16,216 nucleotides of DNA, taken from Thermoproteota archaeon (GTDB lineage Archaea > Thermoproteota > Thermoprotei > Gearchaeales > Gearchaeaceae). Below, one piece after another: positions 1 through 14,938 of this stretch. The stretch lies in NCBI GenBank assembly GCA_032249055.1, contig JAVVGP010000013.1:1-16216 (forward strand). Reading direction: 5' to 3'. The notes below the pieces were generated by a model, which saw only the letters and a list, made by a program, of their open reading frames with translations, searched no databases and was not told where the DNA came from. The position numbers and the translations under genes are program-made. Each line of letters starts with the position of its first letter. Position 1 is the stretch's first letter.

Positions 1-2
1 TA

Positions 3-596
3 AATCATTCCTTATGCTTAACTTTTTACATTAATGTTGAAAATGATGATGAATATAAAAAACGAATTTTCTCTGGACTAAATTATATTCCTTCGATATT
101 TAGTTTTACTACAAATATAAAAAATGAACTTGGAGAATTTTCCAGAACTTCTTTAGTAGAAGGAGTTAAATCACAATTAAAAAAAGAATTTGATATTAAT
201 TTTACTACTTCAGCATTAACTCCATATGAAAATCTTTTATTAAAATCTCACATCGAAAAGCATACAATGAGCGAATGGATATATGGATATAGAAATGTAA
301 GAAGCTTCCTATCTGGAAATGTTAAAAGTGTAACTATAAATACAAAAGAAGGATATTTAACAGTAATAGCTTCATCTAATAGAGGATTAATTATGAATAT
401 TTATATTACTGGTGATTTTTACATCTATCCTCCTGAAGCACTTAATGCGCTTGAAACTTCTTTGCAATTCGCTCCTACAGATGATAAATATATTCAAGAT
501 TGTATAGAAAGATATATAAAAGTCGGAAAGGTAAAGCTTTATGGTATAGATACTAACGATCTAGTGGAAGGAATCAAAAGAGCTGTCATTCAATAA
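3..596 (+). CDS. lplA: Lipoate-protein ligase A, 5'-truncated by the window edge (end of catalytic domain plus C-terminal accessory domain)
   Basis: Frame 3 is open from nt 3 to the TAA at 594-596. Hand translation of 3-266 gives NHSLCLTFYINVENDDEYKKRIFSGLNYIPSIFSFTTNIKNELGEFSRTSLVEGVKSQLKKEFDINFTTSALTPYENLLLKSHIEKHT, continuing into MSEWIYGYRNV. The SEWIYG segment matches the conserved SWEWN(F/Y)G junction of LplA, and the upstream part aligns with the LplA catalytic-domain end. The ATG at 267 in the ORF track is therefore an internal Met. Confidence 0.75.
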   Translation, partial: NHSLCLTFYINVENDDEYKKRIFSGLNYIPSIFSFTTNIKNELGEFSRTSLVEGVKSQLKKEFDINFTTSALTPYENLLLKSHIEKHTMSEWIYGYRNVRSFLSGNVKSVTINTKEGYLTVIASSNRGLIMNIYITGDFYIYPPEALNALETSLQFAPTDDKYIQDCIERYIKVGKVKLYGIDTNDLVEGIKRAVIQ

Positions 597-1280
597 TTTT
601 CTGGATAAATTTTTAGCAGTTTTTGTAGCTAATTCATGAGCTTTTAATAAAGGAAAAGGGTAACAGTTTCGAATACATTTAAAAAACACTTTTATACAAG
701 AATCCAAGTCAATTAAATTTCCTACGCTAATATAATAATCTTTATTACAAATTCTAATTACCTTTCCTAAAACTTCGTTTTCATATATAACATTTCCCAA
801 ATTTTCACTAATCCATTTAATGTTTCCTATCAATTTCTTTTTAGCAACACCTATTGTGGGCTTTTCAATCAAATATCCTACATAGCATGCTAAACCTGCT
901 TTATAAGGATGAAGTTTCCCATTACCATCTATTAAATAAACATCAGCATGATATTTTGTTTCTTTTATTAATTTTACCATATATGGACCTTCTCTTAAAA
1001 ATAACAAGGTAGGAATATAAGGAAAATTAACTGTAGTTATTTTTACTTTTTCTTCTATTACTTTATGATTAATAACATCGTAGATTACTATTGCAGTTAC
1101 TATTTTATTAGAAAAATAAGAACAATCCAAAGCAGCTACAGTTTGGAAATCCATCAATTTTTCTTCTTTAATCTTAGATGCAATGAATGTTTGAATTTCT
1201 CTTGCTTTTTTAATGTCACATTTAAATTCTTCAATTCTTTCTTCTATATTTTCCAAATATTCATGCGAAAATTCTTTCAT
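561..1280 (-). CDS. nfi: Endonuclease V (deoxyinosine 3' endonuclease)
   Basis: 239 aa with an ATG start. DVYLIDGNGKLHPYKAGLACYVGYLIEKPTIGVAKKKL matches the EndoV core (DGxGxxHPRxxGxAxHxGxxxxxPTIGVAK). AALDCSY resembles the catalytic Asp region. Confidence 0.9.
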   Translation of the reverse strand: MKEFSHEYLENIEERIEEFKCDIKKAREIQTFIASKIKEEKLMDFQTVAALDCSYFSNKIVTAIVIYDVINHKVIEEKVKITTVNFPYIPTLLFLREGPYMVKLIKETKYHADVYLIDGNGKLHPYKAGLACYVGYLIEKPTIGVAKKKLIGNIKWISENLGNVIYENEVLGKVIRICNKDYYISVGNLIDLDSCIKVFFKCIRNCYPFPLLKAHELATKTAKNLSRKLLNDSSFDSFH

Positions 1281-1291
1281 TTATATTTCAA

Positions 1292-1362
1292 AACTATTGA
1301 TTGAATAATTAATTTAAAATAGTTTGTTTTTCTTACAGTAAATAGTTATATTTTAAATAGTT
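1292..1362. repeat. Four copies of AATAGTT in the nfi / MBL divergent intergenic region
   Basis: AATAGTT occurs directly at 1318-1324, 1341-1347 and 1356-1362, each time in a (T/A)AAATAGTT(T/A) context. It also occurs inverted as AACTATT at 1292-1298. The last copy overlaps the likely TATA box (TTTTAAATAG) of the MBL gene. Confidence 0.3.
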
Positions 1363-1375
1363 TATCTTATTTGAT

Positions 1376-1993
1376 ATGGAAATCTTTAAACTTGTAGTAC
1401 CTCCTTTAGATAATAATGTATACATAGTTTATGATAAAGAAACAAAAGAAGGTTATGTAATAGATGTTGGATTAGGAGCAAACGAATTAGCTTCTTATAT
1501 AAAAACTCATAAAATAAAAATCCTAGGAATTTTGTTAACCCATGCACATATAGATCATTCTGCACATGCTTTTTTGCTAAGAAAACTAATTAATTCGAAA
1601 GTAATGATTCATTATGCAGACTATAATTTACTTAAGGAATTCTTTTCAAGGGATTATCCTTATATTGATGAAAAATTAGAATATGAAGAACCAGATTATT
1701 TGTTTAAAGATGGAGAAGAATTTAAATTTGGAAAGTATAGTTTAATTGTTATAGAAACTCCAGGTCATACACCTGGTTCTGTATGCTTTTATGAAAAAAA
1801 TGAAAAAGTATTATTTTCAGGTGATACTTTATTCGCTGGTACTTACGGAAGAGTAGATTTTCCTTATAGTGATGAAAATAAAATGATGGAAAGTTTAAGG
1901 AAACTTGCAAGATTGCCTAAGGAGGTTAAAGTTTATCCTGGTCACTATGAAGAAACTAAGATAGAGTATGAATATTGGTTACAAGAGATTTAA
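1376..1993 (+). CDS. MBL-fold metallo-hydrolase (glyoxalase II / hydroxyacylglutathione hydrolase-like)
   Basis: 205 aa. It carries the LTHAHIDH (HxHxDH) zinc motif, TPGHTPGS, SGDTLF and a C-terminal PGH, the typical order of beta-lactamase-fold ligands. Confidence 0.85.
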   Translation: MEIFKLVVPPLDNNVYIVYDKETKEGYVIDVGLGANELASYIKTHKIKILGILLTHAHIDHSAHAFLLRKLINSKVMIHYADYNLLKEFFSRDYPYIDEKLEYEEPDYLFKDGEEFKFGKYSLIVIETPGHTPGSVCFYEKNEKVLFSGDTLFAGTYGRVDFPYSDENKMMESLRKLARLPKEVKVYPGHYEETKIEYEYWLQEI

Positions 1994-2387
1994 GATTTCT
2001 TCCGATATAAAATAAATGAGATCTACATTTACAATCGCTACAACCGAATTTACTTACATATTTAAATTTATTGTTATAAAATATTTTTGATATATCACAT
2101 TCGTTTTTGTTTAATAATAAAATAAAACCTATTATAATTGCATTTTTATTTGTAATTAAATAATCTATATGCCAATGTTTTCTTTTTATTTTACTTAAAT
2201 ATCTTAAAATTCTTGATTTATATGTTTTCTTTGAAGATCCTATATATAAATAGTAACCTTTTTTAAAATCAATATCTCCAATTTTTCCTATTTTTGTTTT
2301 AAATTTTTTCTTAATTTTTATAATTAAAATGTATGATCCTTTTAATTTTAAAATATTATTAAAGTTATTTAAATAACCATTTTTCAT
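1956..2387 (-). CDS. DUF123 / GIY-YIG-like (Uri superfamily, COG1833-type) protein
   Basis: 143 aa. GYYLYIGSS...RILRYL...KHWHIDYL...FGCSDCKCRSHLFY matches my recollection of the DUF123 signature (GxYxYxGSA, RxxRH, HWHIDYL, GxSDCxCxSHLFY). The ATG at 2385-2387 lies 23 nt inside the 3' end of cofE. Confidence 0.75.
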   Translation of the reverse strand: MKNGYLNNFNNILKLKGSYILIIKIKKKFKTKIGKIGDIDFKKGYYLYIGSSKKTYKSRILRYLSKIKRKHWHIDYLITNKNAIIIGFILLLNKNECDISKIFYNNKFKYVSKFGCSDCKCRSHLFYIGRNLKSLVTNIHTLS

Positions 2388-3123
2388 ATGGCATATTTAA
2401 CTTACTTGCATCTTCATCTTCGTTTGTTAATATATTTAATCCTCGAATTATTGCAACAGGTATTCCCTCATCTCCTTGTCCCATAACCAATTCAGCTGCA
2501 GAAGCCAATTCGTCAGCTATTGCAATGTTTTTAACTTGTAAAATATATCCTGCTCTATCGGCTTTTCCTCTATAGTCTTTAAAGATTTTAACTCCAGAAG
2601 CTCCTATAGCTAAGTTTATTTGTCCTTCTCTTAAAGGTCTACCATAAGTATCTGAAATTATTATGCCTACTTTTTTCCCTGTCTTTTTTTCAATTTCATT
2701 CCTTATAATTCTTGCACTTTTATCAGGATCTTCAGGCAACAAAGTAACATATTCTCCTCCTTTTACATTAGATCTATCTATACCTGCATTTGCGCAAACA
2801 ATGCCATGTTTAGTTTCAACGATCAAATGACCAGCTGTTGCTTTAACAATTCTTTTAGATTCTCTTAATACTAGCTCAACAAATCTTGGATCTTTTTGAG
2901 TAATTTTAGATAATATTATGGCTTTTTGCGAAGGTATGACATTATTTAAATTAACTATTCTTCCTTCCCATTTTGAAATTATCTTTTGGGAAATAACTAT
3001 AATATCATTATCTTGAAGTTCGATATTTTCAGATTTTATTTTATCTAAAATTATTCCTACAAGATCATCATTTTCTTTTATTTCTGGTAAACCTTCAATT
3101 CCTATAATTTCAATTTTTTTCAT
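2365..3123 (-). CDS. cofE: Coenzyme F420-0:L-glutamate (gamma-glutamyl) ligase
   Basis: 252 aa. Matching segments are GLPEIKENDDL, IIVISQKIISKWEGRIV, NAGIDRSNV, IISDTYGRPLREGQINLAIGASG and ADELASAAELVMGQGDEGIPVAIIRG, all typical CofE blocks. There is no C-terminal nitroreductase-like extension. Confidence 0.9.
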   Translation of the reverse strand: MKKIEIIGIEGLPEIKENDDLVGIILDKIKSENIELQDNDIIVISQKIISKWEGRIVNLNNVIPSQKAIILSKITQKDPRFVELVLRESKRIVKATAGHLIVETKHGIVCANAGIDRSNVKGGEYVTLLPEDPDKSARIIRNEIEKKTGKKVGIIISDTYGRPLREGQINLAIGASGVKIFKDYRGKADRAGYILQVKNIAIADELASAAELVMGQGDEGIPVAIIRGLNILTNEDEDASKLNMPYEKWLFK

Positions 3124-3125
3124 TT

Positions 3126-3776
3126 TTAATTTTTTGTTATTTCTTTTATGTATTTAATGCTTTTTTTATTGATATTTAAAGTTTGAAAATATCTAAGTCT
3201 AATTATATCATCTAAATCTAAGCATATTCTTTCGTTGCTATAAATGGCTACACTATAATTATTATCTAAAGCATTTTTTAGATGTAATAAAAAACTACGT
3301 TTTCCTTCTCCAAATTCCAAACTTATTTTAACATAATTTCTTAGCATTAGAATATTTGTTCCTCCATCACAAGAAGGTCCTAATATAATTTCATAATTTT
3401 TTATAAGTTCTCTTAGGTTCTTGAAGTCTACAGGTTCTATTAATGGTAAATCTGAAGGAATTATTAAAGTTGCACCGTTTTCTTCTTTTTTCAAATGATT
3501 CAATGCAAATTCTAAAGCTTTATTTAATTCCTCTTTATTAATTAAAATTTCAATTTCTTTATATTTTTTAAATTCGCTTAAATCATCATAGCTTACTAAA
3601 TATATTTTATTTACCGATTGTGATAAAATACAACTATCTAATATATCTTCAAGCATCAATAAAGTAAGTGTTATTCGAGAATTTTCGTCTAAATATTTTA
3701 TTAATCTACTTTTGCTTTCGTTTAATTTTTTTAAGGGAATTAAAACATTAATTTTCATTTCATCATGTTTTCTCAA
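3126..3776 (-). CDS. cofC: 2-phospho-L-lactate (or PEP) guanylyltransferase
   Basis: 216 aa. Matching segments are INVLIPLKKLNESKSRL (IPxKxxxxxKSRL), IIPSDLPLI and PSCDGGTNILML. The second in-frame ATG at 3756-3758 (MKINVLIPLK) is a plausible true start and would remove the 14-nt overlap with the upstream gene. Confidence 0.8.
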   Translation of the reverse strand: MRKHDEMKINVLIPLKKLNESKSRLIKYLDENSRITLTLLMLEDILDSCILSQSVNKIYLVSYDDLSEFKKYKEIEILINKEELNKALEFALNHLKKEENGATLIIPSDLPLIEPVDFKNLRELIKNYEIILGPSCDGGTNILMLRNYVKISLEFGEGKRSFLLHLKNALDNNYSVAIYSNERICLDLDDIIRLRYFQTLNINKKSIKYIKEITKN

Positions 3777-4524
3777 TATTAAAGTGCTCTATTATTGTTT
3801 TTAATTTGTTTATATCTTCTATAGCTAGCCTTCCTATTGATATATAATCACTACCGCTCTTTAAAAATAAGTTAGCAGTGTCAATATCACGAATGGAATT
3901 TCCTCCTATTATTATAATATCTTTGTTTTGATTCCTTATTCTTTCTATAACGCTTATATCAGGTAAATTTAAATAAGGATGCATAGCATCTATATGAAAT
4001 ATTTTTACTCCAAAATCTTTGAATAATTTAACTAATCTAAGTTCATCAGTAACATTGGCTCTAAATTTAATAATTAAAGGAATGTTAACTTTATTTAAAT
4101 GTTTTTCCAGCCAATCTAATAATAATGCAGGATAAAGTGCAAAGTACTGTCCTCCCCCTCTAGAAATTATTTCAGGCTGTCTGCAATGGAGATTTAATTC
4201 AATAAAATCTACATATTTATTAGAGATTTCAATTGCTCTCAACAATCCTTCTTCTGTGGCAAACCTTGCATTAATTATAACAGGAGCCAAACCTCCTATA
4301 ATCTTTACCTCATTCTTAATATATTCTTCCAACATATTCATTTCTATTACGAATTCTTTTCTTCCTCTTTTAACCATTAACATAGAAGCTTCCATTGTTT
4401 CTCTATCAAAATCTATTCCTCCTAAGGTAACAGCTCCTGCACCTAATTCTGCAACCTTTCTACAGAATTTTCCATCTGTTATCCCTCCTAACGCAGCCAA
4501 TATAACCTTGTTTTTTAATCTCAT
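3763..4524 (-). CDS. Flavin (FMN)-type TIM-barrel oxidoreductase, Dus/NifR3- and class-1 DHOD-like (short archaeal NifR3-related type), function unknown
   Basis: 253 aa. LAALGGITD resembles Dus LAPMAGVTD. IELNLHCRQPE (Cys114, codon 4183-4185) resembles the ELNLSCPN active-site loop of class-1 dihydroorotate dehydrogenase. IIIGGNSIRD...YISIGR resembles the FMN phosphate-binding end of the barrel. There is no C-terminal helical tRNA-binding domain. The start ATG shares one nt with the cofD stop (TAATG, 4522-4526). Confidence 0.7.
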   Translation of the reverse strand: MRLKNKVILAALGGITDGKFCRKVAELGAGAVTLGGIDFDRETMEASMLMVKRGRKEFVIEMNMLEEYIKNEVKIIGGLAPVIINARFATEEGLLRAIEISNKYVDFIELNLHCRQPEIISRGGGQYFALYPALLLDWLEKHLNKVNIPLIIKFRANVTDELRLVKLFKDFGVKIFHIDAMHPYLNLPDISVIERIRNQNKDIIIIGGNSIRDIDTANLFLKSGSDYISIGRLAIEDINKLKTIIEHFNIEKT

Positions 4525-5447
4525 TATTTATAATAATGTTCTATGATAAATTTAGCTAATCTTATTCTATCTTCTTGGGTTTTTAATGAAATATTAGTTT
4601 TAACTAACTCCATATTTAATTTTTCAAGTCTCTCATCGTCTTCTTTTTCATCTACAATAAAAACATCTATAATATCTTCGTAAAGTTTTGCTACTTGATA
4701 TGCGCTAACCTCTAAACCTAAACTTTCCATTAATTTAGCAGCAGGGCCGCTGAAAGGTGAACCTTTAACAATAGGACTTACAGCAATTTTTTTAGCTTCA
4801 CTGCTGATTATAATGTTTCGCATTTTAGGTAAGCTTAATATTGGATTAATACTTGTAATAGGGTTGCTAGGTCCAATAATTATTAATTTAGACTTTAATA
4901 TTGCTTCTATTGCTTCATTAGGAATGCTTGCGTTTTCAATGTTTTCAAATATAACTGATTTTATTGGCATATTGCCTCTATGTAAAACCCAAAATTCTTG
5001 GAAATGTCTTTTTTTAATGCCATCAAATATGTATGTAGTAACTTTATCATTTGTCATAGGAATTATTTTGCAATCTATGTTAAGTTTTTCACATAAGAAC
5101 TTTGTAACTTCTGTTAATTTCATTCCAGATTTTAATAAATTAGTTCTTAAAACATGTATGGCTAAGTCCCTATCACCAATATGAAACCATGAATAGGTAG
5201 GAACAATTTTAGTTATCATTTCATGAAAGTTAAAAGTATCATTTTTTATTCCCCATCCTCTTTCTTCATCAAAAATTCCAGCTAAAGTATACATGACTGA
5301 GTCAACATCAGGACTTATATACAATCCGTAAATTTCTATATCATCTGCAGTATTAACAATTACATTTATTTCTTTTTGAGGGATAACTTTAGCTAAACCA
5401 TCTATTAGTTTTCTTGAACCTGTACCCCCACTTAATACGGTTAGCAA
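4524..5447 (-). CDS. cofD: LPPG:FO 2-phospho-L-lactate transferase
   Basis: 307 aa. Matching segments are LSGGTGSRKLIDGL, VNTADD, SPDVDSVMYTLAG, GWGIKNDTF and IIGPSNPITSI. The start codon is TTG (caa at 5445-5447 on the plus strand). There is no in-frame ATG before the essential GGTG motif. Confidence 0.9.
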   Translation of the reverse strand: MLTVLSGGTGSRKLIDGLAKVIPQKEINVIVNTADDIEIYGLYISPDVDSVMYTLAGIFDEERGWGIKNDTFNFHEMITKIVPTYSWFHIGDRDLAIHVLRTNLLKSGMKLTEVTKFLCEKLNIDCKIIPMTNDKVTTYIFDGIKKRHFQEFWVLHRGNMPIKSVIFENIENASIPNEAIEAILKSKLIIIGPSNPITSINPILSLPKMRNIIISSEAKKIAVSPIVKGSPFSGPAAKLMESLGLEVSAYQVAKLYEDIIDVFIVDEKEDDERLEKLNMELVKTNISLKTQEDRIRLAKFIIEHYYK

Positions 5448-5459
5448 TTTCTTATTATT

Positions 5460-5474
5460 TTTATATTTTATAAA
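5460..5474. promoter_or_regulatory. Shared symmetric TATA element in the 43-bp cofD / rhomboid divergent intergenic region
   Basis: TTTATA-TTT-TATAAA spans 5460-5474 and includes the self-complementary TTTATAAA at 5467-5474. It lies about 17-30 nt from the rhomboid ATG (5491) and about 13-27 nt from the cofD TTG (5447). It is the only TATA-like sequence available to either gene. Confidence 0.4.
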
Positions 5475-5490
5475 CTTAAGAATATTAAAT

Positions 5491-6168
5491 ATGTTAAGCG
5501 TAAGAGGATTTTTAAGTAGTCATACAAATAAGCTTATTTTAGCTAATATTTTGATGTTTATTTTTATAATAGTTACGTACAATTTTATATCTGTTTATTT
5601 TGGCAAAAGACTTTATCATGCAAATTCACCTTTAGATATAATTACGGGAAGAAGCATATCTGGTCTACAATTTCTTCTTTCCCAAGTAAATTATCTCGTA
5701 ATTAACGGCTTTTTATGGCAGTTGTTAACTTCAATGTTTATTCATATAGGTATAATTCATTTAACATTTAATATGGTTGCGCTTTACATTTTTGGAAATT
5801 TGGTAGAAAATGCATATGGTAAAAGGAATTTTTTACTAATATATTTTATCTCAGGATTTTCTGGAAACATAGCTACTTTATTTCTTCTTAAATATCTTCA
5901 ACCTATGGGTGATTTTATTCCTTCTGCAGGTGCTTCAGGAGCTATTTTTGGTTTAATAGGAGCTTATGCTATGCTAGGAAGATTAAGCGGAAGTTTCGCT
6001 GCAGGATTATCTTATGCTATAATTATTTTCCTTTTTTCTTCATTATTTCCTGGTGTAAATATTTTTGCTCATCTCTTTGGTTTATTAGGAGGATTAATTG
6101 TAGCTTTTTTCTTAACTAGAAAATTAAGAAAGCATGAAGAAATTATTTACGCTATTGATTATTATTAG
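5491..6168 (+). CDS. Rhomboid-family intramembrane serine protease
   Basis: 225 aa and multi-pass hydrophobic. It carries HIGIIHLTFNM (HxxxxHxxxN), GASGAIFGLIGAY (catalytic GxSG) and FAHLFGLLGG (catalytic His helix). Confidence 0.85.
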   Translation: MLSVRGFLSSHTNKLILANILMFIFIIVTYNFISVYFGKRLYHANSPLDIITGRSISGLQFLLSQVNYLVINGFLWQLLTSMFIHIGIIHLTFNMVALYIFGNLVENAYGKRNFLLIYFISGFSGNIATLFLLKYLQPMGDFIPSAGASGAIFGLIGAYAMLGRLSGSFAAGLSYAIIIFLFSSLFPGVNIFAHLFGLLGGLIVAFFLTRKLRKHEEIIYAIDYY

Positions 6169-7084
6169 CATATTTTAAAAAAGATACCATACATTTTAAT
6201 ATAACATAAGCAGCAAATTTTGAAGAATATCCTTCATCAAGTATAGGATTTATCTCTACGATATCAATTACTTTAACGTTTTTAATTTTTAGAAGTTCAT
6301 AAAGTAAATTTATTACCTCATGAGGATATAATCCATTAAAACTTAAAGAGTTAACACCTTTTATGTAATGCGCATCAATAACATCGAAATCTATGCTTAT
6401 ATATAGTGATTTCACATCTTCAAAAAATTCTTTAATTTCTTTTACTACACTTCTTTCCCTTATTTCTTCTACGATGTAAAATCTGATTTTATCCTTTGCT
6501 TTAAGAGCGTAATATTTAGAATTGTAAAAATCCCTTATGCCTAATTGTGCTACTTTTATATTGTTAACCTTATTTATTATTTTTCTTAAGAATGAACCAC
6601 TTGTATCATAATTTTCTTTTGTTTCTCTTATATCATGATGAGCATCGAAAATCAGTAAGCCCAGCGGGCCTTCTTTAATGTATTCTTTTAATGACAAAAA
6701 ACTTGGAAATGTTATACTATGATCTCCTCCCAATAATATAGCTAATTTCGATTTTTTGTAGATTTCGTAAGTAGCATTAAATATATGATTAATAGTAAAT
6801 TCATGGTCTGTATGAGAAACATTAATATCACCAAAATCGCATATTTTAAATGAAGCTAAATCTAAATTTTCATAATACGAATATGTATTTAAACTATAAA
6901 GATATTCTCTAATGTATTTTGGTGCATATCTTGCCCCTGGTCTTCCAAAAGTTAAAGAATCGTAAGGCACGCCTAAAATTGCTACATCGCAATCTTCTCT
7001 TGATTTTCTAATTATATGTTTAATTTTTATTTCATTTTCATCTATTTTTGATATATCATATACTGGTTCAATAAATACATCCAT
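6152..7084 (-). CDS. speB: Arginase-family ureohydrolase, most likely agmatinase
   Basis: 310 aa. The Mn-ligand motifs appear in the right order: GGDHSITFP, FDAHHD and SIDFDVID. Substrate (agmatine versus another guanidino compound) cannot be fixed from sequence alone. Confidence 0.75.
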   Translation of the reverse strand: MDVFIEPVYDISKIDENEIKIKHIIRKSREDCDVAILGVPYDSLTFGRPGARYAPKYIREYLYSLNTYSYYENLDLASFKICDFGDINVSHTDHEFTINHIFNATYEIYKKSKLAILLGGDHSITFPSFLSLKEYIKEGPLGLLIFDAHHDIRETKENYDTSGSFLRKIINKVNNIKVAQLGIRDFYNSKYYALKAKDKIRFYIVEEIRERSVVKEIKEFFEDVKSLYISIDFDVIDAHYIKGVNSLSFNGLYPHEVINLLYELLKIKNVKVIDIVEINPILDEGYSSKFAAYVILKCMVSFLKYANNNQ

Positions 7085-7128
7085 AAAATTATTTCTTTTT
7101 GAAACTTATAACTCCTAAAGCTTGAAAA

Positions 7129-7380
7129 TTAGCTTGAATCTAACTCTTTTTCCATATCTTCTTTAATTTTAATAATTTTTTCATAAAGTATATTAAGCAT
7201 TAGTTCACTTGAAAGAGGAGGCTCTACACGATCAACGTTTTCTATAAATCTATGAATATCTTCTATTTCTTTTGATACTGTTTTACCATTTTTTGATAAA
7301 ACAAGAACCAAAGTTCCTTTAGGTGTTAAATAAACTTTATCAAAACCAAATATTTCTTCTAAAAACTTTAACTCTTGCAT
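7129..7380 (-). CDS. Hypothetical 83-aa protein, no recognisable domain
   Basis: ATG start 4 nt downstream of the FrhB-like stop on the same strand. The charged, non-repetitive composition looks protein-like. Coding status is supported only by position and ORF length. Confidence 0.5.
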   Translation of the reverse strand: MQELKFLEEIFGFDKVYLTPKGTLVLVLSKNGKTVSKEIEDIHRFIENVDRVEPPLSSELMLNILYEKIIKIKEDMEKELDSS

Positions 7381-7384
7381 TATA

Positions 7385-8455
7385 TTACTGCATTAGTTTG
7401 CTAAGCTGGAAAGAATGCCCTCTAAATTTTTGTTCAATTGCTCTTTTTGCAACAAATTTAACCTTTGGTTTCTCAGTGCTTTTTACTATTTTACCCGCTC
7501 TTAAAGCACTTTCGATTAACTGTTTTCCAACTTGAGATCTAATTATTGCAAAATTCCATCCATCCGGTGCACCATTTGCACCTAAGGATATATCACTAGC
7601 TTCAGCTGTAAAATCTCTGCAAACATAACATGAGCCAAAAACAGCTTCTTCTAATTCATCAATATGAATTTTTTTCACTTCACCATTTTTCAACCTAAAT
7701 ATTACATTCCTTTTTACAAGAATGTTATTAACATCCTTAGGTTCAATGTTTAGTTTTTCCTTTGCTATTCTAAAGAATTCTTCTCTTCTCCACGTTTTTG
7801 AACAAAATAATCCTAATGTTAAAGCTACTTTTCCTTTAAATTTTGGAACTCTTTCTGTTAATTTTGCAGCTGCAGTTTGGCATCCTGTTCCTACAATAGC
7901 TATTTTATTTAATCTTAATTTATCTATAGCAGTTCTTAAAGGAGTTACCATTGGAACATGCCAATATATTGTTTGTGAATATTTCCTTAATTCTTTAGGA
8001 TCTGTTACAATTACTGCTTTAGCATACCATTCTTCATCTTTTGTAGCTACTATTGCACCGTCAATTAAGCCTATTTCAAAAGCATGTTCTAATAATGCTG
8101 TTGTAACACCGCCATCTGTTGCATTTTTCCAAAGTTCAGGCTCAGTAGCTTTATATATACCATATTCAATATAATCACCTAGAGGTTTGTCTATAGGAGC
8201 TTCGTAAGGATTTACTACAGGACACGCTAATGGGCAAAGTTGACATAAAATACATACACCTATTAATTGGGCTCCTTCAGAACTCCTTTCATCTACTTCT
8301 AATACTTGTGGCGGACATACTGCAACACAACCACCACATAAACAACATAAGTCAGGTTTTACAACAAAAGCTGCTAGATCTCCAAATGTCAATATTTTAG
8401 AAGTTGATAAATTAGGTCTATAAATATCAGGTGAACGTATTTCTACTTTTGACAT
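7385..8455 (-). CDS. Coenzyme F420 hydrogenase/dehydrogenase beta-subunit family (FrhB/FdhB/FpoF-like) iron-sulfur flavoprotein with N-terminal 2x[4Fe-4S] ferredoxin domain
   Basis: 356 aa. It has two CxxCxxCxxxCP motifs (CCLCGGCVAVCPP, CILCQLCPLACPV). These are followed by FrhB_FdhB-like blocks: ATDGGVTTALLEHAFEIGLIDGAIV and IAIVGTGCQTAAAKL. Confidence 0.85.
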   Translation of the reverse strand: MSKVEIRSPDIYRPNLSTSKILTFGDLAAFVVKPDLCCLCGGCVAVCPPQVLEVDERSSEGAQLIGVCILCQLCPLACPVVNPYEAPIDKPLGDYIEYGIYKATEPELWKNATDGGVTTALLEHAFEIGLIDGAIVATKDEEWYAKAVIVTDPKELRKYSQTIYWHVPMVTPLRTAIDKLRLNKIAIVGTGCQTAAAKLTERVPKFKGKVALTLGLFCSKTWRREEFFRIAKEKLNIEPKDVNNILVKRNVIFRLKNGEVKKIHIDELEEAVFGSCYVCRDFTAEASDISLGANGAPDGWNFAIIRSQVGKQLIESALRAGKIVKSTEKPKVKFVAKRAIEQKFRGHSFQLSKLMQ

Positions 8456-8495
8456 ACAATTTCTTCTTCTTTCAAAGAACTTATAAGTTTATCTC

Positions 8496-8522
8496 TTATA
8501 TAAATTAAAAAAATTTATATAA
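8496..8522. promoter_or_regulatory. Palindromic double TATA element in the divergent FrhB-like / pck intergenic region
   Basis: TTATATAAATT (8496-8506), AAAAA spacer, AATTTATATAA (8512-8522): perfect 11-bp inverted arms. The right arm gives TTTATATA 28-35 nt upstream of the pck ATG (8549). The left arm gives TTTATATA on the minus strand 42-49 nt upstream of the FrhB-like ATG (8455). Confidence 0.45.
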
Positions 8523-8548
8523 TATAAAATAATTTTATTTTTCATTCA

Positions 8549-10312
8549 ATGGCAGTAATTCTTGAAGAAGCGAAGGGATTAAATAAAGAATTAATAAAAT
8601 GGGTTAAAGAAGTTGCTGAAATTACCGAACCTGATGAAATATTAATTTGTGATGGTTCGGATGAGGAATTTAATTATTTGATTAATATTTTGTTAAAGGA
8701 AGGAAGTTTAATAAAGTTAAACGAAGAAAAATATCCAGGATGTTATCTTTACAGAAGTGCTCCTTTTGATGTAGCTAGAACCGAAGAAGCTACTTATATA
8801 TGTACTAAAAAGAAAGAAGAAGCTGGTCCAAACAATAATTGGATGGAACCAAATGAAGCAAAAAGTAAGCTGTTTAAATTGTTAAAAGGTTGCATGAGAG
8901 GAAGAAAAATGTTTGTTGTACCTTACATCTTAGGTCCTGTTTCATCAAAATATTCACAAATAGGTGTTGAAATAACCGATAGTCCTTATGTTGTAATAAA
9001 TTTAAGATTCTTAACAAGGATGGGTAAAATAGCTTTAGAAAAATTAAATGAAACAAACAATTTTGTAAAAGGAATTCATTCCATGGGCAATTTGGATCCT
9101 AAGAATAAATATATATGTCATTTTCCTGAAGAAATGCTAATAATAAGCATAAATTCGAATTATGGAGGAAATTCTATATTAAGCAAAAAATGTCATTCTT
9201 TAAGGTTAGCAAGTTATCAAGCAAGAAAAGAAAAATGGATGGCTGAGCATATGCTTGTTATAGGATTGGAAAATCCTGAAGGAGAAATAATATATATTAC
9301 TGCAGCATTTCCTAGTGCAAGCGGAAAAACAAACTTAGCAACTTTATCTCCTTCAGGTAAATATTCAGATTGGAAAATATGGTTAATAAGTGATGATATA
9401 GCTTGGATGTATGTTGGTAATGATGGAAGACTTTATGCAATAAATCCTGAATATGGTTTCTTTGGTGTAGTTGTTGGTATAAATGAAAAAGTAACACCAA
9501 ATTTAATGAAAACTATAAGTAAAAATACGATATTTACAAATGTTGCGCTAACTAAAGATTTAACTCCTTGGTGGGAAGGTCTTGGAGAATATCCAGAGGA
9601 ATTATTAGATTGGCAAGGTAAACCGTGGAAAAAGGGAAAGCCTGCTGCTCATCCAAATTCAAGATTTACAACATATTTAAAGCAATATCCTTATATTTCA
9701 CCTTACTTTGAAGATCCAAACGGTGTTCCGGTATCTGTTATACTTTTTGGAGGAAGAAGAAGTAAAACTATTCCTTTAGTATTTGAAACTTTTAGCTGGG
9801 AACATGGTGTTTTAGCTGGTGCTATGATGCGTGTTGAAACTACAGCTGCTGCTGAAGGTGAAGTTGGAAGATTGAGAAATGACCCTATGGCAATGTTGCC
9901 TTTCTGTGGCTATAATATAGGAGATTATTTTGCTCATTGGCTAGAAATGGGTGAAAGAATCAAACATAAACCAAGAATTTTCTATGTTAATTGGTTTAGA
10001 AAAAATGAAAAAGGTAAATTCATTTGGCCAGGTTTTAATGAAAATATTAGAGTTTTAAAATGGATATGGGATAGGATAAAAGGAAAAGTTGGCGCTGAAA
10101 AAACACCTATTGGATATATTCCAAGGAAGGAAGATTTTGATTTTGAAGGTTTAAATCTTAAAGATGAAGATATTAATGAGTTATTTAAAATAGATAAAAA
10201 TGAATGGATAAAAGAATTTATGGAAGCGAAAAAGTTTTTTGAAAAATTCGGTAATAGATTTCCTAAAAAATTATGGGATATATTCTACGAAATATTGGAA
10301 AATCTTAAATGA
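8549..10312 (+). CDS. pckG: Phosphoenolpyruvate carboxykinase (GTP)
   Basis: 587 aa. Matching segments are ICDGSDEE, YRSAPFDVARTEEATYIC, AGPNNNWM, KKCHSLRLAS, WMAEHMLV, FPSASGKTN (kinase-1a P-loop), SDDIAWM, HPNSRFT and WPGFNENIRVLKWI. Confidence 0.95.
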   Translation: MAVILEEAKGLNKELIKWVKEVAEITEPDEILICDGSDEEFNYLINILLKEGSLIKLNEEKYPGCYLYRSAPFDVARTEEATYICTKKKEEAGPNNNWMEPNEAKSKLFKLLKGCMRGRKMFVVPYILGPVSSKYSQIGVEITDSPYVVINLRFLTRMGKIALEKLNETNNFVKGIHSMGNLDPKNKYICHFPEEMLIISINSNYGGNSILSKKCHSLRLASYQARKEKWMAEHMLVIGLENPEGEIIYITAAFPSASGKTNLATLSPSGKYSDWKIWLISDDIAWMYVGNDGRLYAINPEYGFFGVVVGINEKVTPNLMKTISKNTIFTNVALTKDLTPWWEGLGEYPEELLDWQGKPWKKGKPAAHPNSRFTTYLKQYPYISPYFEDPNGVPVSVILFGGRRSKTIPLVFETFSWEHGVLAGAMMRVETTAAAEGEVGRLRNDPMAMLPFCGYNIGDYFAHWLEMGERIKHKPRIFYVNWFRKNEKGKFIWPGFNENIRVLKWIWDRIKGKVGAEKTPIGYIPRKEDFDFEGLNLKDEDINELFKIDKNEWIKEFMEAKKFFEKFGNRFPKKLWDIFYEILENLK

Positions 10313-10812
10313 AAATAGAAAATCTTGTAGATTTTTTGCTAGAAGTTTATAAATTAAAAGAAATAAAGAGAAAAGGTTGGGTAGTTAAAGTAGGTATTGA
10401 TGAAGCTGAAAGTGTTGCAAGTCATACTTTTGGAATGTTACTTTTAGCTTCGATAATCTATAACAAGTCTGACTTGATGAAAAATATATCTTTACATGAT
10501 ATTGCTGAAATAAAAATAGGAGATTTACTTCCAGAGGAAAAAGATAAGGAGTTGGAGAAAAAAGTATATGAGGAGATTGTTAAAAATGTAGCAAAAGACT
10601 GGAATTTGCCTAAGAGTTTAGATGAAATATTTAGATTAGAGAAAATTAAGGAACTAGATAGATTAGATATGGCTTTGCAAGCTCTTTATTATAAAGAAAA
10701 AGGCTATCCTAAAGAAAAGCTCAGAGAGTTTATTGTTTCAGCAGAAAAGGAAATCAAAAGTAAGGAGTTAAAAGAGATATTAGAAGAAATAAAGAAGAGA
10801 TTCGAAAAATAA
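10309..10812 (+). CDS. HD-domain phosphohydrolase, YfbR/HDDC2-like 5'-deoxynucleotidase family
   Basis: 167 aa. Matching segments are LKEIKRKGW, ESVASHTFGM, LHDIAEIKIGDL and ELDRLDMALQA, the typical YfbR-type order. The ATG overlaps the pck stop (ATGA at 10309-10312). Confidence 0.8.
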   Translation: MKIENLVDFLLEVYKLKEIKRKGWVVKVGIDEAESVASHTFGMLLLASIIYNKSDLMKNISLHDIAEIKIGDLLPEEKDKELEKKVYEEIVKNVAKDWNLPKSLDEIFRLEKIKELDRLDMALQALYYKEKGYPKEKLREFIVSAEKEIKSKELKEILEEIKKRFEK

Positions 10813-11423
10813 ATGGAAAATACAATTTTTGATTTATCTTATTTTAATATTCATAAAATCTTTCAAGAACTAAAAGAAATAGGTGCTATCTCGTTTAAGT
10901 TACTTAGAGATGATTTTAGGAACCTTCTCTATAATGAAGCACTAAATTTTAATTATAAAAAGGAGCCAGTGGAAGTTAATGCTAAAAAATATATTGTAAA
11001 AATGGAAGTTGAATCATGCAGAAGTTTTCCTAATAATAGTTTATTTTATACATTAAAGGAAACATTTCAGAATTTTATAATTAATGAATTTAAAAAAGTT
11101 GGTGAAGATATTTTTGAGACCCCCTTAAATTTTAATTCGATGATCCTTCTTAGGTATCCCAAAGGTTCAATAGGAATTTCTCCTCATCAAGACAATCCTA
11201 AATACATCAATTTGATTTGCATTTTTGTAATAAAAGGTAAAGGCAAATTCTTTATCTGCAAAAATGAAAAGGGGACGATGCTATAGAAATAAGCTCGAAT
11301 GAAGGTAACGTTATAATTCTTAGAGCACCAGGGTTTTTAAAATCAAAGCAAAGACCCTTTCATTTTGTAAAGGATATTGAAGAAGAAAGATATACCTTTG
11401 GTTTAAGACAGGAAAAGCTTTAA
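10813..11423 (+). pseudogene. AlkB-like 2OG-Fe(II) dioxygenase, interrupted by a 1-nt frameshift in an A4G4 tract (or a sequencing error)
   Basis: Frame 1 (10813-11286) ends ...LLRYPKGSIGISPHQDN...FFICKNEKGTML*. Frame 3 opens at 11268 and reads KGDDAIEISSNEGNVIILRAPGFLKSKQRPFHFVKDIEEERYTFGLRQEKL* with its stop at 11421-11423. Joined, the two give the full HxD...H...R facial triad. RYxxGxxxxxHQD and RYTFGLRQ resemble E. coli AlkB (NRYAPGAKLSLHQD, RYNLTFRQ). The ATG directly abuts the HD gene stop. Confidence 0.6.
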
Positions 11424-11539
11424 ATTTAAAAGAATTACACTTCTTAGATCTGAATTTTAGAAATAAAATTTAAGAAATTGTTTCATAAAATTGAATTTGA
11501 ATTTTCATGTTTTTATTTAATATTAATTAAATCTTAAGT

Positions 11540-11932
11540 ATGAGTGTTAAAGTCACATGGAAAGTTAATGAAGGATATATAGGCTACGATTCTAAAGGAA
11601 ACACCATAGAACTTGGTAAAGATAAATTTTCTCCAATGGAACTTTTATTAATTTCCTTAGCAGGATGTACAGCAATAGATGTTGTCGAAATATTAACTAA
11701 AATGAGGAAAAAAATAAAAGAAGTAAATGTCTATGTTGAAGGAGAAAGGAATGAAGAATATCCAAGATATTGGAAAAAAGCAAAAATAAAATATGAGATT
11801 TTAGGAGAAGATATCACAAATGCGGATGCTGAAAAAGCAATAAAGCTTTCAATGGATATTTATTGTTCAGTAGCTGCAACAATTTCAGGCAAGACTGAGA
11901 TATCTTATAGCTATGAAATTAAAAAAGTATAA
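11540..11932 (+). CDS. OsmC/Ohr-family peroxiredoxin-like protein
   Basis: 130 aa. The two conserved Cys contexts are LLISLAGCTAIDV and DIYCSVAATI, with spacing typical for OsmC. Confidence 0.85.
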   Translation: MSVKVTWKVNEGYIGYDSKGNTIELGKDKFSPMELLLISLAGCTAIDVVEILTKMRKKIKEVNVYVEGERNEEYPRYWKKAKIKYEILGEDITNADAEKAIKLSMDIYCSVAATISGKTEISYSYEIKKV

Positions 11933-11995
11933 TTAAAAGTTAAGTTAAAAAATTACTTTTTCAAAAATATTAATTCTATTTCGTAATAATCTTTC

Positions 11996-12850
11996 ATGAA
12001 TATAGGATTTATAGGGCTTGGCAGAATGGGAAGTAGAATTGCAAAAAACTTACTTAAAGAATATGGAAATATTAACGTTTATAATAGAACAAAAGAAAAA
12101 GCAAAAGAACTAATTGAATTAGGAGCAAAGTTTTTTGATACTCCAAAAGAACTTGCTAAATATTCAAATGTTATATTTACAATAGTTTCAAATTCCGAAG
12201 CTGTAAAAGAAGTACTTTTAGGTTCCGAAGGTGCTTTTCATTCAGCTTCAAAGGATACATATTTTATAGATATGTCAACAATTGAACCAGATGTTTCAAT
12301 AGAAATTTACAATATAGCTAAACAAAAAGGATTTCACTTTTTAGATGCTCCATTGATTGGAAGTATTGATGCAGCTGAAAAGGCAACTTTAACTATAATT
12401 GTAGGAGGTGATAAAGAAGATTTTGAACATGTATTACCAATATTACAAAAAATAGGTAAAAACATATTTTATGTAGGACCTGCAGGAAGTGGTTCAAAAC
12501 TTAAATTAATAAATAACGTTTTAATTGCCAACACACCTGTCATATTTGGAGAAATTTTAAATATAGCTAAAAAATCAGGTTTAGATTTACAAGTAGTATT
12601 AAATGTATTAAAATCAGGAATTTTTGGACAGATTTTAACTTATTATGAAAATAGGATAGTATATAAGAACTTTTCTACTAGATTTAGTTTGGAATTAATG
12701 TTAAAAGATTTAAAATATGCAAAAAAATTAGCCTCAACGTTTAATTGCAAAACAGCTATTATAGATAGTCTAGTTCAAGTTTATGATGAAGCGTTTAAAA
12801 AAGGTTTATCGCAACTAGATTACACTGCTGTAAGTACAGTTTTTGAATAA
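11996..12850 (+). CDS. NAD(P)-dependent beta-hydroxyacid dehydrogenase (3-hydroxyisobutyrate / 6-phosphogluconate dehydrogenase-like)
   Basis: 284 aa. It has the N-terminal Rossmann motif IGFIGLGRMGSRIAKNL, then FLDAPLIGS, GSGSKLKLINN and LMLKDLKYA, which are family signatures. Confidence 0.85.
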   Translation: MNIGFIGLGRMGSRIAKNLLKEYGNINVYNRTKEKAKELIELGAKFFDTPKELAKYSNVIFTIVSNSEAVKEVLLGSEGAFHSASKDTYFIDMSTIEPDVSIEIYNIAKQKGFHFLDAPLIGSIDAAEKATLTIIVGGDKEDFEHVLPILQKIGKNIFYVGPAGSGSKLKLINNVLIANTPVIFGEILNIAKKSGLDLQVVLNVLKSGIFGQILTYYENRIVYKNFSTRFSLELMLKDLKYAKKLASTFNCKTAIIDSLVQVYDEAFKKGLSQLDYTAVSTVFE

Positions 12851-12863
12851 AAAAATAAAAAAA

Positions 12864-13100
12864 TTAGTATGTTTCTATTACTACTGAAGTAGAAGTTTTT
12901 ATTACTCCAGGTACTGAAAGTATTTTTTCTTTAATTGTTTTGGACAATTCTGAGAAATCTTTTGCATCAAGCTCTACAACTAGATCAAATTCTCCTGTTA
13001 CTGCTTTTACTGATTTAGCGTTTTGTATTTTTTTAATTTCAGTACCTACTTTGTCAATTTTATTAGGTTCTACTACAACAAATACGTATGCTTCTACCAT
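12864..13100 (-). CDS. Stand-alone Lrp/AsnC-type ligand-binding (RAM) domain protein, no DNA-binding domain
   Basis: VEAYVFVVVEP...VKAVTGEFDLVVELDAKDFSELSKTIKEKILSVPGVIKTSTSVVIE fits the RAM beta-alpha-beta-beta-alpha-beta pattern. The track start at 13106 is a TTG. The ATG two codons later (13098-13100) sits a leaderless-typical distance from a strong TATA box, so I prefer it (78 aa). Confidence 0.75.
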   Translation of the reverse strand: MVEAYVFVVVEPNKIDKVGTEIKKIQNAKSVKAVTGEFDLVVELDAKDFSELSKTIKEKILSVPGVIKTSTSVVIETY

Positions 13101-13122
13101 AAACAAATTAATTTTTGTAAAG

Positions 13123-13136
13123 TATATAAATTTAAA
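13123..13136 (-). promoter_or_regulatory. TATA box for the RAM-domain gene
   Basis: The minus strand reads TTTAAATTTATATA, centred about 29 nt upstream of the ATG at 13100. There is no SD motif, which is consistent with a leaderless transcript. Confidence 0.5.
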
Positions 13137-13216
13137 GAATTCATAAAGATTGATTTAACTTAAAAAGGTGGTTAATACAACATTTTAGTAAAACTTCTAA
13201 TATCTTCTTTTAAAAC

Positions 13217-14842: not shown

Positions 14843-14860
14843 AGTGTAAAATAATAAGGA

Positions 14861-14876: not shown

Positions 14877-14938
14877 CTTTTCGGTATTTTAGACTTACCA
14901 ATAAATTTGGTATCTTAAAATAATTAAAATAGAATAAA

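Follow-up and report, generated by a model that had tools for sequence, protein, structure and literature searches.

How the lactyl group of coenzyme F420 arises in archaea has been an open question since 2001: no gene encoding a lactate kinase has come to light, and archaeal CofE lacks the reductase domain of the bacterial pathway. The coenzyme plays a central part in methanogenesis and anaerobic methane oxidation, in antibiotic biosynthesis and in the activation of anti-tuberculosis prodrugs. The question is raised again by a contig of a Thermoproteota archaeon (NCBI GenBank assembly GCA_032249055.1, contig JAVVGP010000013.1, positions 1 to 16,216), the whole stretch of 16,216 nucleotides (nt) with a G+C content of 28% being referred to in the following as the window. 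Between the F420 biosynthesis genes cofD and cofC, the window carries an open reading frame (ORF) for a protein of 253 amino acids (aa), hereafter X, which an initial annotation, made without database searches, had proposed as the missing reductase of the pathway. Our analysis identified X as the best available candidate for this gene-less reduction step. On balance, X is slightly more likely than not to be an enolpyruvyl reductase of the archaeal F420 pathway, acting on one of three substrates, namely dehydro-F420-0, phosphoenolpyruvate (PEP) or enolpyruvyl-diphospho-5'-guanosine (EPPG). This reading is carried by a predicted fold, by conserved catalytic residues and by a conserved linkage of X to cofD; the flavin, the substrate and the electron donor are inferred.

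In the classical archaeal scheme, CofC activates 2-phospho-L-lactate (2-PL) and CofD transfers it, the 2-PL being supplied by an 'unidentified lactate kinase CofB' (PMC8498797), and the origin of 2-PL is still called 'unknown' (PMC8498797; Braga et al. 2019, Hasan et al. 2022). In the bacterial pathway, FbiB's C-terminal domain, or the stand-alone FbiE of Thermomicrobium roseum, is a flavin mononucleotide (FMN)-dependent dehydro-F420-0 reductase encoded beside or fused with cofD/cofE homologues (PMC8498797, PMC6450877). Bashiri et al. 2019 described archaeal CofE as devoid of this domain, postulated a hypothetical archaeal dehydro-F420-0 reductase, 'CofX', and searched more than 1000 archaeal genomes for genes of the nitroreductase (NTR) fold near cofE, none of which was convincing (PMC6450877). 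Furthermore, Escherichia coli equipped with cofC and cofD of Methanocaldococcus jannaschii formed traces of dehydro-F420 and no F420, and M. jannaschii itself contains F420 only and no dehydro-F420 (Braga et al. 2019, Hasan et al. 2022). The gap on which the initial annotation built is thus a real one. Our search of the literature, with subscription-only papers outside its scope, found no paper on MJ0144/TIGR00736, the family to which X belongs, and none assigning an archaeal dehydro-F420 or PEP reductase.

Organization of the cof Genes in the Window

The genes on which the argument rests are the following:

3763..4524, minus strand: X, the 253-aa ORF and candidate enolpyruvyl reductase, a stand-alone predicted FMN-type TIM barrel of the MJ0144/TIGR00736 family in the superfamily of dihydrouridine synthases (Dus) and dihydroorotate dehydrogenases (DHOD)
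4524..5447, minus strand: cofD, 2-phospho-L-lactate transferase (TIGR01819, 353.8 bits with a cutoff of 257; Pfam CofD, 181 bits)
4522..4526, minus strand: TAATG junction of cofD and X, read in reverse complement
3126..3758 (ATG start) or 3126..3776 (TTG start), minus strand: cofC, guanylyltransferase (TIGR03552, 125.9 bits with a cutoff of 105)
2365..3123, minus strand: cofE, F420-0:gamma-glutamyl ligase (TIGR01916, 288.8 bits; 252 aa)

Together with a DUF123 gene, these genes form a head-to-tail run of five ORFs on the minus strand (cofD, X, cofC, cofE, DUF123 gene), with cofD directly upstream and cofC directly downstream of X, and the description of the sequence in the initial annotation was right in every checked detail. 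In the TAATG overlap, one base is common to the cofD stop and the ATG of X, which points to translational coupling. On the other side, the TGA of X occupies 3765..3763, and the ATG of cofC at 3758 begins 4 nt further downstream, whereas the alternative TTG at 3776 would give an overlap of 14 nt with X. The ATG is favoured, because the Pfam CofC match begins only at residue 10 of the TTG form. The spacing between cofC and cofE is 2 nt. As had been stated, CofE lacks an FbiB-type reductase domain: F420_ligase (residues 12-228 of 252) is its sole Pfam domain, with no nitroreductase-type domain attached.

An identical gene order was found on a separate contig encoding a 93%-identical X, and the order is also kept in the locus L002 of a 'Thermoproteota archaeon' metagenome-assembled genome (MAG; 92%-identical X) and in the metagenome contig L090 (98%-identical CofD; labels of this kind denote loci fetched for comparison). 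Judging from these near-identical copies and from about 130 distinct homologues that keep its motifs, X is a real gene and not a chance ORF. Rfam and tRNA scans of the window revealed no RNA features, and a scan of the operon for sigma-70 promoters and intrinsic terminators, which is not meaningful for archaea, gave results at or below shuffle expectation.

Family Assignment and Predicted Fold

The best family match of X is TIGR00736 (182.3 bits, E=1e-53; residues 13-239 on positions 2-228 of the 231-position profile), named 'MJ0144 family RNA dihydrouridine synthase-like protein' and earlier 'nifR3-related archaeal TIM-barrel protein'. Despite the full-length match, the score lies below the curated whole-protein cutoff of 218.7 bits. 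Among the orthologues, those of Methanobacterium, which stand in a cofE-cofD-arfA-X context, pass with 253 bits, whereas those of Freyarchaeia (201.5), Hydrothermarchaeota (182), Methanocella (140) and Natrinema (110) remain below it. The 133 sequences of our family alignment share invariant residues and a single barrel-only architecture, and X, with its score below the cutoff, is a divergent branch of the MJ0144/TIGR00736 family. Pfam Dus (PF01207), named in the initial annotation, was matched with 29.5 bits, above its gathering threshold of 20.4, over profile positions 63-219 of 311 only; DHO_dh (PF01180), named there as well, reached 15.8 bits and fell short of its threshold of 27. TIGR01037 (33 with a cutoff of 270) and the DusB equivalog TIGR00737 (39.1 with a cutoff of 293) were missed by a wide distance, the DusA/B/C equivalogs in general scoring about 39 bits with cutoffs near 290.

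An AlphaFold2 model of X, calculated from a 44-sequence alignment (pLDDT 96.9, pTM 0.93), consists of an eight-stranded beta/alpha barrel alone and upheld the initial reading of a Dus/DHOD-like flavin barrel. Barrel helix 8 is followed by the end of the chain at residue 253, and the C-terminal helical (four-helix) tRNA-binding domain is missing, as had been noticed, in the model as well as in the Dus profile match, which does not extend past position 219. The nearest structures in a Foldseek search were Thermus Dus, E. coli DusB, Lactococcus DHODB, E. coli and human DHODH, and dihydropyrimidine dehydrogenase (DPD), with TM values of about 0.7 and identities of 13-20%; the family profile matched E. 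coli DusB with E=5e-24. No structure of an MJ0144-family member has been solved.

These matches raise the question of whether X is a true minimal RNA dihydrouridine synthase, acting on tRNA or rRNA, possibly aided by a separate protein that binds RNA, and standing next to cofD fortuitously or for regulatory reasons. Such a role would agree with the Pfam Dus score, with the Dus enzymes being the best matches in sequence and fold among the PDB entries, with the retention of all Dus catalytic residues and with the public labels of family members, which read 'tRNA-dihydrouridine synthase' besides 'TIM-barrel protein', 'dihydropyrimidine dehydrogenase' and 'MJ0144 family ... -like protein'. It is made less likely by the absent tRNA-binding domain and by the low equivalog scores, and further evidence on this point is given by the active site and by the genomic setting.

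Active-Site Motifs and Their Conservation

Conservation was counted in the alignment of 133 non-identical family members. The motifs of X are the following:

4474..4500, minus strand: L9-A-A-L-G-G-I-T-D17, Dus-type first strand and FMN-contact loop, aligned with DusB IAAPMAGITD (G14 in 132/133)
4351..4368, minus strand: R53-G-R55-K-E57-F58, family-specific, kept in at least 128/133, within an insertion between strands 2 and 3
4171..4200, minus strand: E109-L-N-L-H-C114-R-Q-P-E118, catalytic loop, read from the sequence
4060..4068, minus strand: K153-F-R155, equivalent of the Dus K-x-R, from the profile alignment to DusB VTLKIRTG (R155 in 129/133)
3823..3906, minus strand: G207-G-N209-S...S229-I-G-R232 (GGNSIRD...SIGRLA), FMN phosphate-binding-like segment, aligned with DusB IANGDI...MIGRAA and DHODB IIGMGGV...VAVGTAN

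The loop ELNLHCRQPE (residues 109-118), which the initial annotation had compared with that of class-1 DHOD, aligns with E. coli DusB IDINMGCPAKKV (INMGCP) and with IELNISCPNVK of Lactococcus lactis DHODB. Its Cys114 (codon 4183..4185) is conserved in 133/133 sequences, and the Cys aligned with it is the catalytic acid/base in both Dus and DHOD. Compared to the DHOD loop LN-x-S-C-P-N, the Cys is kept, whereas the orotate-binding P-N is replaced by R-Q. The Dus-like N-terminus LAALGGITD and the C-terminal FMN phosphate-binding-like segment had likewise been recognized correctly, the former aligning with the APMAGITD of Dus. At the family level, the motifs LAAMAGxTD, E-l-N-a-H-C-R-Q, v-K-i-R, G-N-N-S and S-x-A-R-A-A align with Dus, as does l-H-v-D (H177) with LTIHGRT. 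In total, five residues are invariant in 133/133 members (E109, H113, C114, G125 and K153), and N85, R87, R55, E57, F58, R115, Q116, E118, R155, H177, D179, N209 (130/133) and R232 (128/133) are conserved to 96-99%.

X thus retains the Dus/DHOD catalytic set (N111, C114, K153-x-R155 and H177) and, as judged from these residues, is predicted to be a flavin enzyme, the cofactor probably being FMN, that places a hydride and a Cys proton across a C=C bond beside a carbonyl or carboxylate group. Its substrate site would differ from that of Dus: H113, R115 and Q116, which characterize the family, and the RGRxEF insertion are missing from Dus. The insertion comprises about 25-30 residues, has no counterpart in an alignment to the Dus TM0096 and may form an Arg-rich lid or an anion-binding element.

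Distribution of the Family and Linkage to cofD

When 1.84 billion cluster representatives were searched exhaustively with HMMER, only 196 relatives were found at E<=1e-3 and 59 at E<=1e-10, true DusB-type proteins appearing at E of about 1e-11 or weaker. The distant relatives came from this search, a word-indexed homologue search having returned near-identical proteins only (two matches with the single sequence and six with a 44-sequence profile). A pattern scan in which each species was represented by one genome placed the family in at least 592 genomes, the best 80 of these matches being all archaeal and belonging to Thermoproteota MAGs, several Asgard groups, Methanobacteriaceae, Methanocellales, Methanoperedens/ANME-2/Methanosarcinales and Hydrothermarchaeota. 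Cluster look-ups added Methanococcus, Methanosphaera, Methanopyri and Heimdallarchaeaceae, and a search of a plasmid collection added the haloarchaeon Natrinema.

To evaluate the gene neighbourhoods, ORFs were called in all fetched loci and searched with the Cof proteins of the window. To reduce pseudo-replication, the X sequences were grouped into 22 clusters, consisting of 60%-identity clusters, separate 50%-identity representatives looked up singly and the Natrinema match. cofD was located within 8 kb of X in 53/81 genome loci and directly upstream of X in 17 of the 22 clusters. These represent six or more phyla or classes of archaea, and the pair is kept although the remaining cof genes are shuffled, so that the neighbourhood test proposed in the initial annotation was strongly positive. 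The two genes mostly lie within about 10 nt of each other or overlap, the largest gap seen being about 55 nt. Compared to the order of the window lineage (cofD-X-cofC-cofE), the genes are arranged as cofE-cofD-X-cofC in Jord-/Freyarchaeia, in a second Thermoproteota MAG lineage and in L083, as cofD-X with cofC adjacent or 1.9 kb off in Borr-, Sif- and Promethearchaeota, as cofD-X-cofC in the complete genome of Heimdallarchaeum endolithica and in L173, and as cofE-cofD-X in Hydrothermarchaeota. In Natrinema thermotolerans, cofD (TIGR01819, 359 bits) overlaps X by 4 nt; in L170, cofD is followed by a fusion of X to a GGACT domain, and L089, L172, L063, L086 and L088 are further loci listed among the cofD-X cases. 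The 41 loci of Methanobacteriaceae show the order cofE-cofD-arfA-X, arfA (GTP cyclohydrolase III) being the sole gene between cofD and X. In most cofD-linked clusters cofE lies within 3 kb, and every cofE seen, in loci with X and in loci without it, is too short (up to about 335 aa as listed) to contain an NTR reductase domain. Fusions of X to CofC, CofD or CofE were sought among the relatives and none was found, the only fusions seen being those with methanogenesis marker 9 (several) and GGACT (one).

For one gene out of a few thousand, the repeated adjacency of cofD and X in many deep lineages is far beyond chance and is the signature of a functional partnership with CofD, probably a stoichiometric one. 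For an enzyme of tRNA, a conserved and often overlapping cofD-X pair across phyla would be unexpected, and every lineage named above has adjacent cof genes or known F420 use. Taking the active site and the genomic setting together, a dihydrouridine synthase role of X is very unlikely.

Genes Associated with X besides cofD

Marker 9, the CitG-like and DUF447 genes and DmrX, none of which had been seen in the initial annotation, accompany X in part of the loci. In 59/81 genome loci, X is fused to or lies near methanogenesis marker 9 (TIGR03277), a domain that comprises about 110 residues, contains two CC-P-x-K-P-C-P motifs and, in stand-alone proteins, is followed by a UBA-like tail. Fusions, at the C-terminus of X, occur in Methanocella, Methanoperedens, ANME-2 and other Methanosarcinales; in Hydrothermarchaeota, which are not known to be methanogens, marker 9 directly adjoins X, and in Methanobacteriaceae it lies two genes downstream. 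A CitG-like gene follows X or X-marker 9 in Hydrothermarchaeota, Methanocellales, L082, L086 and L088. Apart from L088, whose contig stops at this point, a DUF447 gene comes next in each of them. Behind them, a DmrX-type flavoprotein (283 bits to TIGR02700, 'dihydromethanopterin reductase') is encoded in Hydrothermarchaeota, in the Methanocellales loci L028 and L034, and in L086. In Natrinema, the CitG-like and DUF447 genes are located 2 kb downstream of X; their association with X recurs in lineages with and without methanopterin. Representative features are the following:

L070:7968-9098, L073:8744-9238 and L016:10508-10984: marker 9
L073:9240-11418, L086:1469-3287, L082:1614-3160 and L174:9826-11270: CitG-like/DUF447 stretches

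The fusion of X and marker 9 constitutes a Rosetta-stone link and indicates that the two form a functional pair. By analogy to DHODB and DPD, the Cys-rich marker 9 may be an iron–sulfur (Fe-S) electron-input module which, fused or adjacent to X, would feed electrons to its flavin in methanogen-related lineages. In Methanoperedens loci (L030:4046-7800 and others), X::marker 9 divergently adjoins NuoA/B/C/D/H-like genes, judged by eye to encode an Fpo-type F420H2 dehydrogenase. The GGACT fusion in L170 (221-1270, protein P0010; PF06094, gamma-glutamylcyclotransferase-like domain, 43 bits) stands directly behind the C-terminus of cofD in one lineage and hints, if weakly, at a ligand that is gamma-glutamylated, for instance F420-n.

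Part of these associations could mean that X has another F420-linked role, as a partner or chaperone of CofD, as a reductase of 7,8-didemethyl-8-hydroxy-5-deazariboflavin (FO), F420 or side products (repair), or as part of a module with the CitG-like protein, DUF447 and marker 9. Linkage to cofD in itself says only that X works with CofD, the order cofD-X-CitG-like-DUF447(-DmrX) recurs in L073, L086 and L088 and is approached in Natrinema, marker 9 is a frequent companion, and X is dispensable in sister operons. Nevertheless, the conserved Dus/DHOD catalytic set with its universal proton-donor Cys points to reduction of a C=C bond beside a carbonyl or carboxylate group, and the enolpyruvyl group is, to our knowledge, the sole such bond in the cof pathway. 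A role of this kind is therefore unlikely.

A related explanation places X in tetrahydromethanopterin biosynthesis, where it would reduce, for instance, a ribofuranosyl-aminobenzene intermediate, and ascribes its nearness to cofD solely to the clustering of F420 and methanopterin genes. It draws on DmrX being a methanopterin enzyme that, with the CitG-like and DUF447 genes, comes after X in Hydrothermarchaeota, Methanocellales and L086, and on MptE-like and pterin-methylase-like genes near X in a Methanopyri contig. However, in at least ten lineages X is flanked by cof genes only, the examined flanks of 5-8 kb containing none of those genes, and we know of no C=C reduction in the methanopterin pathway. 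Furthermore, haloarchaea make F420 and do so without methanopterin (supplement of PMC8305020), and the haloarchaeon Natrinema keeps an overlapping cofD-X pair. A methanopterin role of X is accordingly regarded as highly improbable.

In Methanobacteriaceae, arfA (L016:7137-7898 and 40 other loci; PF05165, 390 bits) encodes the first enzyme towards the pyrimidine of FO and riboflavin, and the full order reads purO-cofE-cofD-arfA-X, double ABC ATPase, marker 9, sirC-like, hemA-like. MJ0145, the arfA of M. jannaschii, is next to MJ0144 as well. A role of X in the riboflavin/FO pyrimidine branch, considered on account of arfA, was rejected, since no redox step is missing there, ArfC being a known enzyme of this branch. 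A role in the formation of didehydroaspartate in methyl-coenzyme M reductase, considered on account of marker 9 and of A2-like ATPase neighbours, was rejected for the window, since the family occurs in non-methanogens.

Proposed Reaction and Weighing of the Evidence

The sequence accommodates each of the three enolpyruvyl substrates and does not itself choose among them. The reduction of dehydro-F420-0 is slightly favoured and is put forward tentatively. CofC and CofD, as shown for the archaeal enzymes in vitro, would attach enolpyruvyl phosphate from PEP to FO, giving dehydro-F420-0. X would then bind the enolpyruvyl end over reduced FMN, so that the terminal methylene carbon (C3) could receive a hydride from N5 of the flavin, and Cys114 would protonate C2, with K153, R155, N85, N111 and H177 holding the carboxylate or enolate, which corresponds to the Dus/DHOD half-reaction with a new acceptor. 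The product F420-0 would serve as the substrate of the single-domain CofE. X would thereby be a non-homologous replacement of FbiB's FMN-dependent C-terminal domain (FbiE in stand-alone form) and the 'CofX' postulated in 2019. Dehydro-F420-0 is favoured because the conserved core is cofD-X, in pathway order, because the set of cofE, cofD and X mirrors bacterial fbiA and fbiB (fbiB being cofE fused to the reductase), because the known enolpyruvyl reductases act on carrier-bound groups, and because the route avoids free 2-PL, an inhibitor of central-metabolism enzymes (Bashiri 2019, PMC6450877).

Alternatively, X could act before CofD, converting PEP to 2-PL and thus replacing the 'CofB' lactate kinase or, less likely, converting CofC-bound EPPG to lactyl-diphospho-5'-guanosine (LPPG). 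The chemistry would be unchanged, with the flavin hydride going to C3 and the Cys114 proton to C2, and the product would be the substrate that archaeal CofC and CofD prefer. The enzymes of M. jannaschii turn over 2-PL far better than PEP (96.5% and 3.5%, respectively), and its CofD, acting as a selective filter, prefers LPPG (Braga et al. 2019, Hasan et al. 2022). Dehydro-F420-0 may therefore be a minor product in methanogens. The content of F420 alone in M. jannaschii also speaks for action before CofD. No kinase candidate was found in cof operons, which together with the 2-PL origin being called unknown (PMC8498797, PMC6450877) leaves room for such a reductase. In addition, cofC directly follows X in the window, in Jord-/Freyarchaeia, Sifarchaeota and Heimdallarchaeum, and in L083, L089 and L173, and the conserved R53, R55, R87, R115 and R155 together with the Lys would suit a small tri-anionic ligand. 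On the other side, cofD-X is kept more widely than X-cofC, cofC being located elsewhere in Methanobacteriaceae, Hydrothermarchaeota, Natrinema, L086, L088 and L172. Both MurB and the FbiB C-domain work on carrier-bound groups, and we know of no precedent for a reductase of free PEP, whose product would, moreover, be the inhibitory free 2-PL. For the EPPG variant, a third enzyme would be awkward, since the unstable EPPG and LPPG do not leave CofC (Braga et al. 2019, Hasan et al. 2022). We consider action of X before CofD rather unlikely.

Apart from the substrate preferences of the M. jannaschii enzymes, several observations weigh against X as the reductase of the pathway. A GTP-dependent lactate kinase has been proposed for methanogens (PMC8498797), and therefore a PEP-derived route is not forced. 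Reduction of uridine would suit the catalytic residues just as well, and the associations with marker 9, the CitG-like protein, DUF447 and DmrX are not explained by an F420 reductase. The lactate-kinase proposal reportedly rests on data from methanogen extracts. With regard to the gene neighbourhood, five clusters have no cofD nearby (Methanoperedens/Methanosarcinales, Methanocella, the Methanopyri contig, L084/85 and L082, a 74%-GC contig), X not being near cofD in Methanoperedens, Methanosarcinales and Methanocellales. Furthermore, among the best 80 of at least 596 metagenomic CofD-anchored loci, ranked by similarity to the CofD of the window, X was adjacent in 6 and missing in 74, and the nearest CofD relatives (L091-L093, 67-70% identity) have no X in their cof operon. 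X had been called an obligate member of the cof transcript, which suits the window and fails for these loci: X is an accessory of cof operons and not a fixed part, and genomes without it there encode X elsewhere, as in Methanosarcinales, or manage without. X was either inserted in the window lineage or lost in those of L091-L093. In the X-less loci, an alternative reductase (NTR-type or other) beside cofD was sought and no obvious substitute was seen, the neighbours being cofE, an HD-domain protein, cofG/H-like radical SAM, LLM/Mer-like, UbiX and FrhB-like genes. In L091:5001-7295 and L092:5001-7308, which have the divergent rhomboid neighbour in common with the window, the order is cofD-cofC-cofE and cofC begins at the cofD stop; L093:2673-4074 contains cofD-cofC and then the contig end.

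In summary of the family as a whole, we regard it as evenly balanced whether MJ0144/TIGR00736 is the missing redox enzyme of the archaeal F420 side chain (as 'CofX', or as a PEP to 2-PL reductase making 'CofB' unnecessary), with marker 9 by extension its Fe-S electron input and the CitG-like and DUF447 proteins perhaps its helpers; the remaining probability, beyond the explanations weighed here, belongs to something not considered. If the reductase reading is true, a known step, enolpyruvyl reduction in F420 synthesis, would be catalysed by a new enzyme family, the gap would be closed and the archaeal pathway complete, making efficient heterologous F420 production from archaeal genes possible. 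The widespread label 'tRNA-dihydrouridine synthase' would have to be corrected for this family, the Dus/DHOD catalytic apparatus would have been recruited to an enolpyruvyl substrate, and the orphan methanogenesis marker 9 would probably gain its first function. A conserved gene beside cofD turns the archaeal lactyl question into a one-gene experiment.

Further Features of the Window

1956..2387, minus strand: DUF123 gene (PF01986, 84 bits), with a Cys-rich C-terminus

The DUF123 gene overlaps cofE by 23 nt, keeps its place behind cofE in L001 and L002, and is probably co-transcribed with the cof genes. Upstream of the cof operon and on the same strand, the window encodes an arginase-family protein (6152..7084, minus strand; agmatinase or formimidoylglutamase-like), an 83-aa ORF without family match (7129..7380, minus strand) and an FrhB/FpoF-like F420-binding subunit with an N-terminal 2x[4Fe-4S] ferredoxin domain (7385..8455, minus strand). 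The Jord-/Freyarchaeia loci likewise contain an arginase-family gene, at a distance of about 3 kb from X. A GTP-dependent PEP carboxykinase (8549..10312, plus strand; PF00821, 521 bits) is located about 3 kb from the cof operon; it makes PEP, a possible precursor of the F420 side chain, and its nearness may be a coincidence. Finally, a beta-hydroxyacid dehydrogenase-like protein (11996..12850, plus strand; NAD_binding_2 and NAD_binding_11) carries a Rossmann domain that also matches F420_oxidored (31.7 bits with a cutoff of 21.6).

Comparison with Known Systems

Within its own MJ0144/TIGR00736 family, X shares the full length and the invariant residues and differs by its score under the curated cutoff. 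Compared to Dus (PF01207, COG0042; T. thermophilus Dus 3B0P, E. coli DusB 6EI9), X has in common the FMN-type (beta/alpha)8 barrel, an APMAGxTD-like first strand, N-x-x-C, K-x-R, the His after strand 6 and an FMN-phosphate site of the NG..GRAA type, and a likeness would be expected in the chemistry, that is, in the transfer of a flavin hydride and a Cys proton across a C=C bond conjugated to a carbonyl group. The two differ in size (about 310-350 aa for Dus and 253 aa for X, which has no C-terminal helical RNA-binding domain), in the loop (G-C-P in Dus and H-C-R-Q-P-E in X), in the 25-30-residue insertion with RGRxEF of X, and on strand 3, where Gln in Dus is replaced by Asn, as in DHOD. Their identity is 17-20%, and the genomic partner of X is cofD instead of RNA-modification genes.

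Class-1 DHOD (PyrD; L. lactis DHODB 1EP1/5UE9) and DPD share with X the barrel, the ELN-x-x-C loop and the catalytic Cys, and DHODB additionally the Asn on strand 3 and the Lys on strand 5. DHODB and DPD take electrons via Fe-S partners, which resembles the Cys-rich marker 9 fused or adjacent to methanogen-type X. However, the C-P-N and S-x-N orotate-binding residues of DHOD are lacking in X, which has a Dus-like K-x-R, and a separate pyrD is presumably encoded in X-bearing genomes.

The closest parallels to the proposed reaction lie outside the superfamily. The FbiB C-domain and FbiE resemble X in their genomic coupling to cofD/cofE and would resemble it in the FMNH2-dependent enolpyruvyl reduction of dehydro-F420-0 to F420-0; they have the NTR fold, which binds FMN and F420, whereas X is a TIM barrel and at most a functional analogue. 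MurB (UDP-N-acetylenolpyruvoylglucosamine reductase) is an FAD/NADPH enzyme of a fold unrelated to X and reduces a carrier-bound enolpyruvyl group by a flavin-dependent transfer of hydride to C3 and of a proton to C2. MurB and the FbiB C-domain show that enolpyruvyl groups can be reduced by a flavin, the reaction proposed here for X.

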